A stretch of DNA of 64,000 bases from PVC group bacterium (GTDB taxonomy: Bacteria; Omnitrophota; Gorgyraeia; B26-G9): the NCBI GenBank assembly GCA_024231215.1, contig JAAEQR010000202.1, forward strand, positions 302 through 64,301, in the 5' to 3' direction. This document shows positions 3,962-5,625 of this stretch, one piece after another; positions within the stretch are counted from its first letter, which is position 1, and each line of letters begins with the position of its first letter. A program made the position numbers and the translations under genes. The notes below the pieces were generated by a model, which was given only the letters and a program-made list of their open reading frames with translations, did not search any database and was not told the DNA's origin.

Positions 3962-4255
3962 ATGAACCCAATGCGACTATTTTTAATTATTTTATTAACC
4001 ACAGGCTTATTGCTAATGGCTATTGGCGCGGTGCGGCCACAGGACGAATACTATCCAAAATATACCTATGATGAGTTTGGTTATCGATCAAGAATTAATA
4101 TAATGGTCAACGTAACTCCTACCATTTGGCCGCCTGATGTTACAAAAAGACCAAACGTTAGTATACAAAAATTTAAAATTTTTTATAACGACAACATGAC
4201 CGTAGAATTCGGCCTACGTGCCGATGGTCTAGTAGAATGGAAAGAGGTGAAATGA
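3962..4255 (+). CDS. membrane or secreted hypothetical protein
   Basis: 97-aa ORF with an N-terminal hydrophobic segment (LFLIILLTTGLLLMAIGAV). A GAGGTGA ribosome-binding site precedes it. Confidence 0.4.
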   Translation: MNPMRLFLIILLTTGLLLMAIGAVRPQDEYYPKYTYDEFGYRSRINIMVNVTPTIWPPDVTKRPNVSIQKFKIFYNDNMTVEFGLRADGLVEWKEVK

Positions 4256-4401
4256 ATTTTTTAAATGATATGTGGGGATTTTTATCAACCAGAAAGAAAT
4301 TTTGGTTACTCCCAATAATATTAACAATGTTATTGTTTGGTGGTTTAATGGTAACAATAAGTGGTACTGCCATTGCACCATTTATTTATACTATATTTTA
4401 A
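4252..4401 (+). CDS. DUF5989-like small membrane protein
   Basis: 49-aa ORF, MNFLNDMWGFLSTRKKFWLLPIILTMLLFGGLMVTISGTAIAPFIYTIF. The pattern (W.F...RKKFWLLPII...L.GGL......aiAPFIYTlF) matches the DUF5989 family. This is from memory. Confidence 0.45.
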   Translation: MNFLNDMWGFLSTRKKFWLLPIILTMLLFGGLMVTISGTAIAPFIYTIF

Positions 4402-4409
4402 GAAATTAA

Positions 4410-5474
4410 ATGACTAATAAAGCAAAAAACAGTTTTTTGGTAATTATTACAATATTAATATTATTTTTGGTTGGCGAACTGTCTTTGAGAATATACCATA
4501 CTATAAAGTGGGATGCTCCATTCTTGGTAAAATGGGGTGCTCCCGAATGTATGTATTTACCAATAAAACTTAGTTATGAGCTTGGATGGGAGTCGAGGCC
4601 GAATTATACTTTTAGTGGGGTGAAAAAAAGTTCTGACGGGTCTATCTATAATGTTGATATTAATTTTGATTCAAATGGATTTAGAGCATTTGGTGATGTA
4701 CATTCAAATAAAATCAAAGTATTAGTAATTGGTGATTCTGGAACACAGGCAATTGAGGTGTCAGATAATGAAACATATTATTCTTTGCTCGGTAAACTCT
4801 TGAATGTAGAAATTTTTGCATATGGGTGTGGTGCTTTTGGGACATTGCAAGAGTATATGATATTAGACAAATATATTGATATTATTAAACCAGATATATT
4901 ATTATGGCAATACTGTCAAAACGATTTTTCTGATAATTCGGTTGAATTTGAAAAAAAATCAAAATATCGTCAGGGGAGATTAAGACCATATTGGGTGGAT
5001 GGCGAAATAAAATATCAGATTCCAGTAGATAATTTTTTATGGTTAAGAATATTTGCTACTAGAAATTCGCGGTTATTATACATTCTTTTTTATAGACTAA
5101 ATAATTTTTTAGTTCCTAATGCGTCATCGTTTATTGAAGATGCTATACAACAACGTGGATTTTCAAATAAAATTTTTGGTAAGTCTATTATAATAACAGA
5201 CGAGATTATGGCTGGGGTTAAAAAACGTATGGGTGGTATACAAATAGTTTCTTTTTCTGCAAATGCTGAATGGCCATATTTGGAGGCATTTGGTAAAATA
5301 TCAAAAAATAATAACATCCATTTTATAAACAATGTTGGTAAATCAATTATAGATGCTAAAGAGACTGGTGCAATTGTGAGGAGTATTGATAATATGCATT
5401 GGAATAACTTAGGTCACAAAATTGTTGCTGATTGTATTGTTATGTATTTTAGAAAAAATTTTGGTTTTAAATAG
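4410..5474 (+). CDS. SGNH/GDSL-family hydrolase (esterase/lipase-like) with N-terminal membrane anchor
   Basis: 354 aa with an N-terminal transmembrane segment. VLVIGDSGTQ matches the GDS(x) block I of SGNH hydrolases, and DxxH-like residues lie near the C-terminus (DNMHWNNLGH). Confidence 0.5.
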   Translation: MTNKAKNSFLVIITILILFLVGELSLRIYHTIKWDAPFLVKWGAPECMYLPIKLSYELGWESRPNYTFSGVKKSSDGSIYNVDINFDSNGFRAFGDVHSNKIKVLVIGDSGTQAIEVSDNETYYSLLGKLLNVEIFAYGCGAFGTLQEYMILDKYIDIIKPDILLWQYCQNDFSDNSVEFEKKSKYRQGRLRPYWVDGEIKYQIPVDNFLWLRIFATRNSRLLYILFYRLNNFLVPNASSFIEDAIQQRGFSNKIFGKSIIITDEIMAGVKKRMGGIQIVSFSANAEWPYLEAFGKISKNNNIHFINNVGKSIIDAKETGAIVRSIDNMHWNNLGHKIVADCIVMYFRKNFGFK

Positions 5475-5490
5475 AATGGAAAGAGGTGAA

Positions 5491-5625
5491 ATGAATAAAA
5501 TATTTGTTTCTACATGTCTGATTATTATAATAATAATTTCGGTTATAATAATTAGTCCTTTTGCAATACTGTGTTTTTTCTTATGTGGTGATGAAAGAAT
5601 GGACAAAGAAAACCAAAATATTTAA
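5491..5625 (+). CDS. small hydrophobic peptide (44 aa)
   Basis: It is preceded by an exact duplicate of the 25-nt TAGAATGGAAAGAGGTGAAATGAAT start context found at 4233-4257. The peptide is entirely transmembrane-like. Confidence 0.3.
   Translation: MNKIFVSTCLIIIIIISVIIISPFAILCFFLCGDERMDKENQNI

Follow-up and report, generated by a model that had tools for sequence, protein, structure and literature searches.

Introduction

The saxitoxin cluster contains the genes sxtI (1839 bp), sxtJ (405 bp), sxtK (165 bp) and sxtL (1281 bp); SxtL is a GDSL lipase that was proposed to remove carbamoyl groups, while SxtJ and SxtK are listed as unknown (PMC2679770, PMC2885083). Here we describe a pair of genes in phage DNA that recalls the second half of this series. 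The stretch in question (contig JAAEQR010000202.1 of GenBank assembly GCA_024231215.1, positions 302 to 64,301 of the forward strand) is 64,000 nucleotides (nt) long; we call the whole of it the window, and the positions of phage features are counted from its first letter. The pair consists of a gene for a 49-amino acid (aa) single-pass membrane protein of the DUF5989 family, i.e. an SxtK-like protein (4252-4401, plus strand), and a gene for a 354-aa membrane-anchored SGNH/GDSL hydrolase (4410-5474, plus strand). It is enclosed by two exact copies of a 25-mer, TAGAATGGAAAGAGGTGAAATGAAT, at 4233-4257 and 5472-5496 (both plus strand). The large terminase gene at 9460-11088 identifies the window as phage DNA.

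A second described system concerns the repeat. In T4-type phages, small non-essential genes of a variable region with a distinct composition are bordered by short repeated expression signals known as PeSLs; when neighbouring copies recombine, the genes in between are deleted, inserted or circularised (PMC2839356, PMC4122927). Our best explanation of the present locus, to which we assign as a whole a probability of about one half, is that the pair is an accessory cassette of bacterial origin within the phage: the downstream half of a four-gene bacterial module, bounded by a direct repeat and directed at the cell envelope.

The DUF5989 protein and the SGNH hydrolase

The 49-aa open reading frame (ORF) matched the Pfam family DUF5989 (PF19451) with 82.5 bits at a cutoff of 27 (E = 2.2e-23). 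The match is full length, i.e. residues 1-49 fall on profile positions 1-49 of 49, and the family membership that the original prediction had proposed is thereby established. Its identity to bacterial DUF5989 proteins is 71-80%, and one of these (78% identity) is called 'SxtK' in UniRef; the named closest relatives (76-80% identity) are mostly from Desulfobacterota. It has the general form of the family, i.e. about 50 residues, a single hydrophobic helix and the motifs R-K-K-[FW]-W-L-x-P and A-P-F-I-Y-T-[LI]-F, which are retained as RKKFWLLP and APFIYTIF, and all of the invariant columns (10/10) of a 13-sequence family alignment are present. The exact 49-aa sequence is absent from a collection of 5.8 billion proteins, where the best match has 80% identity. 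The SGNH protein and the product of the upstream gene, ORF97 (3962-4255, plus strand), do occur in that collection and come from the NCBI record, so the 49-aa gene has probably never been annotated in the public record.

The 354-aa ORF passed the threshold of the Lipase_GDSL profile marginally (23.9 bits, cutoff 23.6). Its family is clearer from its 89 homologues, which share 31-46% identity with it and most of which match PF13472 or PF00657. In a 24-sequence alignment the residues G108-D109-S110, N171-D172 and H330 are invariant, and in the phage protein D327 stands three residues before H330 (DxxH block). Although its identity to the best bacterial homologue is only 44%, the protein keeps all 24 invariant columns of the alignment, which suggests that it has continued to function despite its divergence.

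In the AlphaFold model of the hydrolase (pLDDT 90.7, pTM 0.88), residues 3-34 make up a long N-terminal helix, and a small beta domain accompanies the SGNH core. When the model was compared with the PDB using Foldseek, the best matches were SGNH hydrolases, namely CgnD, the acetyl-xylan esterases Est2A, Axe2 and AlAXEase, and TesA; the probability was 1.00 for CgnD, Est2A, Axe2 and TesA, and the TM-scores, normalised to target length, reached 0.74. The helix of residues 3-34 is hydrophobic and has two lysines ahead of it, as would suit a membrane anchor; according to the alignment the segment is strongly hydrophobic, and it is so in the bacterial homologues too. Taken together, the homologues, the intact catalytic blocks, the confident SGNH-fold model and the N-terminal helix bear out the earlier description of this protein as a membrane-anchored SGNH hydrolase.

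The bacterial module

We examined 82 loci that contain a homologue of the SGNH gene, counting a DUF5989 gene if it was on the same strand within 6 kb. Such a gene was found in 22 of the 82. A NodU/CmcH-type carbamoyltransferase lies within 6 kb in 21 of these 22 loci, and 17 of them have a membrane protein of about 125-140 aa that Pfam identifies as SxtJ (PF19588). The original prediction had stated that DUF5989 stands beside carbamoyltransferase and esterase genes in glycan or secondary-metabolite clusters, and the 21 loci and their glycan contexts agree with it. By gene content, carbamoyltransferase, SxtJ, DUF5989 and GDSL hydrolase are recognisable as a widespread bacterial module with the order of sxtI-J-K-L. 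Where DUF5989 and the hydrolase both occur, they are usually immediate neighbours, and the order of the phage, i.e. DUF5989 followed by SGNH, is seen in six loci (L017, L027, L041, L063, L082 and L091). Neighbour joining places the phage hydrolase on a long branch within a clade of mixed composition, which has both module-linked and unlinked bacterial homologues.

The neighbouring genes in the bacterial loci include a MurJ-family flippase, glycosyltransferases and a Bac_transf gene in locus L002, and MBOAT, epimerase, GT2 and DegT genes in L101. In L125, from the PVC-group bacterium Candidatus Brocadia, a Gal-3-O-sulfotransferase and WecG are found alongside. The full module is present in PVC-group bacteria, both in this locus and in two loci from Planctomycetota (L044 and L065). 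The most instructive locus is L063, from a metagenome-assembled genome (MAG) of Candidatus Aminicenantes. Here the DUF5989 and SGNH pair (5440-6894 of that locus) has the phage order and is flanked by a Wzx flippase on one side and by GT1, Wzy and GT1 genes on the other; there is a Gal-3-O-sulfotransferase upstream, and this is the only one of the 22 loci without a carbamoyltransferase.

Two near-identical loci, L001 (7986-13563) and L018, have an unusual arrangement in which two DUF5989 genes flank one carbamoyltransferase, L001 also having two SGNH genes. In both, a rubrerythrin/ferritin-like domain carries an SxtJ-like segment as a C-terminal fusion, in a protein of 248-289 aa.

The phage holds only two of the four module genes, i.e. 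the SxtK-like gene and a gene in the SxtL position. No carbamoyltransferase was detected in any ORF of the window, either by tblastn or by a Pfam sweep of the 59 window ORFs of about 95 aa or more, and no SxtJ was found in the window ORFs with a profile built from the bacterial loci or in the Pfam sweep. None of 90 SGNH homologues is named SxtL by its source. The fact that the phage and L063 both keep DUF5989 and the hydrolase alone suggests that the two can work as a unit without the carbamoyltransferase. SxtJ, SxtK (DUF5989) and SxtL have remained 'unknown' or 'proposed' since the saxitoxin cluster was described, and their homologues are widespread in bacterial surface-polysaccharide loci.

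The direct repeat at the borders of the pair

Apart from its two exact copies, the 25-mer occurs nowhere in the window at up to three mismatches, and 100 shuffles produced no match, i.e. none is expected by chance. The similarity ends abruptly on either side of both copies. The copies are 1,239 bp apart and enclose exactly the DUF5989 and SGNH genes. Copy 1 forms the left border: ORF97 ends in it with its last seven codons and its TGA stop, the DUF5989 gene begins in it with ATG AAT, and it includes a GAGGTGA ribosome-binding site. Copy 2, on the right, also has this ribosome-binding site, together with the TAG that closes the SGNH gene and the ATG AAT that opens ORF44 (5491-5625, plus strand). 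The internal junction between the two genes, TAAGAAATTAAATG, is of another type than the outer ones: the SGNH gene starts 8 nt after the DUF5989 stop, and the GAGGTGA-type ribosome-binding site of the local kind is missing.

The original prediction took the repeat as a sign that the start of a small gene had recently been duplicated. The 25-mer does stand at both starts, but the copies bracket exactly the DUF5989 and SGNH genes, and we prefer to see in the repeat the junction of a two-gene cassette that was inserted or can be excised, going beyond a duplicated gene start.

The narrower reading is that the start region of the DUF5989 gene was copied onto ORF44, in which case the repeat would say nothing on the mobility of the pair. 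The 3' two-thirds of the 25-mer are a ribosome-binding site and start signal, and related forms of the outer junction stand at other starts of the region: at 3951, on the border of ORF97 and the preceding ORF45 (3812-3949, plus strand); at 5623-5647 (plus strand), directly 3' of the ORF44 stop, with 18/25 bases or 72% identity; at 5803; and at 6207, the start of ORF67, with 17/25 bases. Such signals could spread by gene conversion. At a level of at least 18/25 three matches were seen, two of them the exact copies, against 0.45 expected by shuffling, and the degenerate copies are individually not significant. What speaks against a copied start is that the 9-11 nt upstream of the ribosome-binding site are identical as well, though they belong to a coding sequence in copy 1 but not in copy 2, that the genes whose outer borders the copies exactly mark are the only two of the region with bacterial homologues, and that the junction between these two genes has a different form. 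We consider the copied start unlikely and keep to the cassette junction.

Base composition and origin

At a GC content of 0.297, where the window averages 0.399, the cassette falls in the lowest 1.7% of 1.2-kb intervals. The change coincides with the left border, i.e. the GC content falls at copy 1 from 0.374 in ORF97 to 0.267 in the DUF5989 gene. The low-GC stretch then runs to about 6640, across ORF44 and five more small ORFs. This island (4252-6640, plus strand; GC 0.27-0.30), in which six small ORFs accompany the cassette, has the lowest GC content in the 64 kb and looks like a hyperplastic region of AT-rich accessory genes. Several of its small ORFs are hydrophobic, and several start with ATGAAT after a GAGGTG-type ribosome-binding site.

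Leaving aside the record of the phage itself, the named sources of the SGNH homologues are bacterial or archaeal MAGs (Nitrospirota, Saprospiraceae, Planctomycetota, Omnitrophota, Verrucomicrobiota and DPANN archaea among them) and the rest are unlabelled metagenome contigs; none comes from a known viral record. Neither the DUF5989 nor the SGNH family is present in PHROGs. For the SGNH family, a tblastn search of 50,697 GenBank phage records gave no match, and no relative was found in 2.9 million IMG/VR contigs with single-sequence and alignment-based scans.

DUF5989 was found in two IMG/VR contigs. The first (L096, IMGVR_UViG_3300006733_000025, 40 kb) is clearly a phage, unrelated to the present one, and has a solitary DUF5989 gene at 7998-8150 of the contig, among small membrane-protein ORFs, with no carbamoyltransferase, SxtJ or SGNH gene within 8 kb of it. 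DUF5989 alone can thus travel on a phage. The second (L097) has a DUF5989 gene adjoining a carbamoyltransferase and is probably bacterial. The low GC content with its drop at copy 1, the internal junction without GAGGTGA, the non-viral homologues and the rarity of both families in phages are our reasons for proposing a foreign, bacterial origin of the pair.

Proposed mechanism and alternative explanations

We propose that the cassette sits between ORF97 and ORF44 of the phage as a unit bounded by the 25-nt direct repeat, each copy of which supplies the stop, the ribosome-binding site and the ATG-AAT of one junction. Since each copy carries these three elements, ORF97 would be kept translationally coupled to the DUF5989 gene, where its TGA stop (4253-4255) overlaps the ATG (4252-4254) as ATGA, and ORF44 would be translated from the same signal. 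Recombination between the repeats would delete the pair cleanly and restore an ORF97-ORF44 junction; in the opposite direction, the pair would be inserted when a circle with one repeat undergoes a single crossover. According to the positive-inside rule, the N-termini of both products are predicted to be cytoplasmic and their bulk outside, and with this topology the catalytic domain would face the periplasm. The anchored esterase and its DUF5989 partner could then remove or move an O-linked acyl or carbamoyl group on an envelope polysaccharide of the host, and the altered surface might exclude other phages or spare the progeny from re-adsorbing to debris. It is most likely that the cassette alters the host cell surface in some way, and the bacterial gene context points to envelope glycans as the target. 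Lysogenic conversion, which the original prediction had offered as one possible role, is not supported: no integrase or recombinase family was found among the 59 ORFs, and the prophage-conversion model of the Oac/Gtr type is inapplicable for this reason.

Several points weigh against this explanation. The closest DUF5989 relatives (76-80% identity) are found in SxtJ-DUF5989-carbamoyltransferase trios that have no SGNH gene, so the DUF5989 and SGNH genes of the phage may not have had a common donor. Part of the 25-mer coincides with the local consensus of ribosome-binding site and ATGAA, and the low-GC island extends about 1.1 kb past copy 2, i.e. the composition gives no right border. Ends of the transposon, integron-like or miniature inverted-repeat transposable element type were considered and rejected, as there are no meaningful inverted repeats at the borders. 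Neither is there a promoter and terminator pair or a terminator-like site at either border, and promoter-like matches at the borders are no commoner than in shuffled sequence. The function is deduced from gene neighbourhood, and reviews of 2009-2010 report DUF5989, SxtJ and SxtL without experimental characterisation (PMC2885083, PMC2679770). The activity, the substrate, the benefit to the phage, the topology and the repeat-mediated insertion are inferences. Finally, no close phage relative was found in the collections searched and consequently there is no cassette-free site for comparison; we infer both the insertion and its direction from a single genome.

A bolder explanation is that the pair replaces the acceptor end of a carbamoylation module of the host. 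DUF5989 would dock on the SxtJ and carbamoyltransferase of the host, and the SGNH domain would be a transferase, as in AlgJ, AlgX and PatB, that puts an O-carbamoyl or acyl group on a new envelope acceptor and so masks a receptor. The association of bacterial DUF5989 with carbamoyltransferase and SxtJ is nearly constant (21 of the 22 loci and all three contexts of the closest relatives), PVC-group bacteria carry the full module (L125, L044 and L065), and the very retention of DUF5989 on the phage hints at an interaction with a host partner. AlgJ has a periplasmic SGNH-like domain on a single N-terminal membrane anchor and acts on exported glycans, an architecture that the phage protein would share, and several members of its family give weak AlgX-type (PF16822) matches; the phage protein itself gave none in the Pfam search. 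Against this stand the best structural matches, which are hydrolases (CgnD, acetyl-xylan esterases and TesA), and the occurrence of the pair with no carbamoyltransferase nearby in L063; the explanation would moreover depend on a hypothetical relay of a carbamoyl group across the membrane. We consider this explanation distinctly unlikely. Its most far-reaching form, in which DUF5989 and the anchored SGNH protein are a self-contained, portable acceptor end of an as yet uncharacterised O-carbamoyl/acyl pathway for envelope glycans, with which the phage hijacks the carbamoyltransferase and SxtJ of the host and re-decorates or masks the receptor, is a long shot. If true, it would mean that phages modify surfaces by a chemistry of a new type, and it would give a first functional access to SxtJ, SxtK and SxtL.

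Next we consider lysis. The products of five consecutive genes (ORF45, ORF97, DUF5989, SGNH and ORF44) are hydrophobic or anchored, and these genes stand a little upstream of the packaging genes, in the position that lysis genes have in lambdoid phages. The whole block seems to be directed at the envelope, and the esterase could have a part in lysis or release, acting perhaps on peptidoglycan as a de-O-acetylase or on outer-membrane lipid (cf. Ape and LysB). Neither the block nor the surroundings of the tail genes nor the rest of the window yielded an endolysin, holin or spanin family. The missing lysis genes leave room for such a role, but the same result means that no protein of the block matches any of these families. 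The lysis-helper reading is further weakened by the contexts of the bacterial homologues, which are polysaccharide and carbamoylation clusters and not cell-wall turnover loci, and by the strongly hydrophobic anchor, which is unlike the weakly hydrophobic, releasable anchors of some endolysins. It appears quite improbable to us.

The least probable explanation, which we regard as hardly credible, is an artefact or an inert passenger, i.e. a chimeric assembly, misjoined bacterial DNA or a recent capture without function: the contig does come from a metagenome bin labelled 'PVC group bacterium' and the exact 49-aa sequence is missing from the protein database, but there are phage genes on either side and over all 64 kb, a chimera would require a bacterial segment with this 25-mer at either end, the composition of the cassette is that of the neighbouring phage island, and both ORFs are intact with every invariant residue kept in spite of the 44% identity of the SGNH protein to its closest relative.

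We thus retain the accessory cassette of bacterial origin as the preferred explanation. If it turns out that the cassette performs an ordinary de-O-acylation of a receptor glycan, it will be one more accessory gene set of a familiar kind. The placement of a gene pair between identical translation junctions may in itself be a route by which small accessory genes are exchanged in such phages.

The gene run and the phage genome

The run of genes that includes the cassette starts with ORF45, a 45-aa hydrophobic peptide without a significant Pfam or PHROG match. A 14-bp perfect palindrome centred on TATAAT, CTCATTATAATGAG, is located at 3778-3791, 21 nt upstream of its start. The window has seven exact copies of this palindrome and one with a single mismatch, against 0.02 expected; they are at 3778, 29520, 47511, 51790, 54149, 55048, 58464 and 61811. 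The copies that were checked are intergenic, and the mismatched one at 29520 lies inside an ORF (29481-30536). The palindrome is probably a promoter or operator motif specific to the phage, and the copy at 3778 would head the gene run of the cassette. One copy directly abuts a tRNA-Trp gene (58382-58457, minus strand).

The TAG stop of ORF45 is followed by a GAGGTGA ribosome-binding site for ORF97. The ORF97 product has an N-terminal hydrophobic helix and a small beta-rich domain; no homologues were found, i.e. there was no match in IMG/VR and the sole match in the 5.8-billion-protein set is the protein itself. Its single-sequence AlphaFold model (pLDDT 61) is too poor for a fold search. ORF44 encodes a 44-aa hydrophobic peptide with an acidic C-terminus and has no Pfam or PHROG match. 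On account of a 'PFAIL' stretch it was considered as a minimal SxtJ, and this was ruled out (E = 5 against the SxtJ profile built from the bacterial loci). The degenerate junction at 5623 leads into a mini-ORF of eight codons (MKKGCIPK, 5642-5668), whose TGA stop overlaps the ATG of ORF49 (5665) as ATGA; it may be a translational-coupling leader.

Phage genes are spread along the full window on both sides of the cassette. In addition to the terminase there is a portal-like gene at 12852-14798, for which the best PHROG match is a head-tail adaptor and a weaker one a portal protein, and the Pfam sweep also detected a capsid protein family. The sweep recognised only five families among the 59 ORFs. 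In substantial matches, the terminase relatives from IMG/VR and JGI loci are at most 55% identical, with 65% over one fragment of 88 residues, and none of the loci collected in this way shares genes with the cassette region. A megablast search of GenBank phages with positions 3000-7500 gave no match, and the 25-mer does not occur in the IMG/VR or JGI metagenome contigs. Judged from these comparisons, the window represents a previously undescribed phage of a very isolated lineage.

Two genes point in another direction. A Mom-family protein gene (PF25680, E = 5e-27) is found at 55055-55693 (minus strand), and two genes from it, at 56919-58016 (minus strand), there is an MT-A70 adenine methyltransferase domain (E = 4e-27). 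Their presence suggests that the phage modifies its own DNA. A defence system was also considered and ruled out, as there were no PADLOC matches.

Comparison with known systems

The phage pair resembles the sxtI-J-K-L, or PF19588-PF19451, module in that a small DUF5989 gene is followed by a GDSL/SGNH gene in the same order and on the same strand. It differs in that the carbamoyltransferase and SxtJ are missing, the genome is viral and the pair lies within a 25-nt direct repeat. The likeness to SxtL is one of gene position and description.

Among phage-related enzymes, the AT3 and AT3-SGNH O-acetyltransferases (Oac, OafA and OafB) and the SGNH esterases of virions offer a parallel, in the form of a phage-carried catalytic domain with the SGNH fold that acts on envelope carbohydrate on the far side of the membrane (PMC7448272, PMC5380687); for the present protein this action is a prediction. 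In contrast to the O-acetyltransferases, it has no AT3 domain, a single N-terminal helix as anchor and a DUF5989 partner, and neither AT3 nor Gtr families were found among the 59 ORFs or the genes of the cassette region. The SGNH esterases of virions are parts of tail spikes or fibres, whereas the 354-aa phage protein is stand-alone, not fused to a tail protein, and its gene is outside the structural module, at a distance of 4 kb upstream from the terminase gene. Phage SGNH proteins that match the model are numerous, but the resemblance is confined to the fold, and the sequence identity to viral SGNH proteins is 9-17%. The O-acyltransferases AlgJ, AlgX and PatB share with the phage protein a predicted periplasmic SGNH domain, and AlgJ also the single N-terminal anchor. 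The differences are that the phage protein lacks an AlgX match, that the phage has no MBOAT partner and that the top structural matches are hydrolases.

With regard to the borders, the likeness to PeSLs consists in the presence of the same repeat at both ends of the cassette and in its location within a compositionally distinct region. The phage repeat is a 25-nt junction of stop, ribosome-binding site and start and not a promoter with a terminator stem-loop; there are only two exact copies, and the cassette is known from one genome, with no polymorphism or mini-circle observed. PeSLs provide an earlier example of regulatory repeats by which small gene cassettes of phages are shuffled (PMC2839356). 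The cassette adds a family that is absent from the phage collections searched to the envelope-directed genes of phages, and we classify it as an accessory envelope-modifying cassette, i.e. a truncated two-gene form of the bacterial module bounded by a direct repeat.

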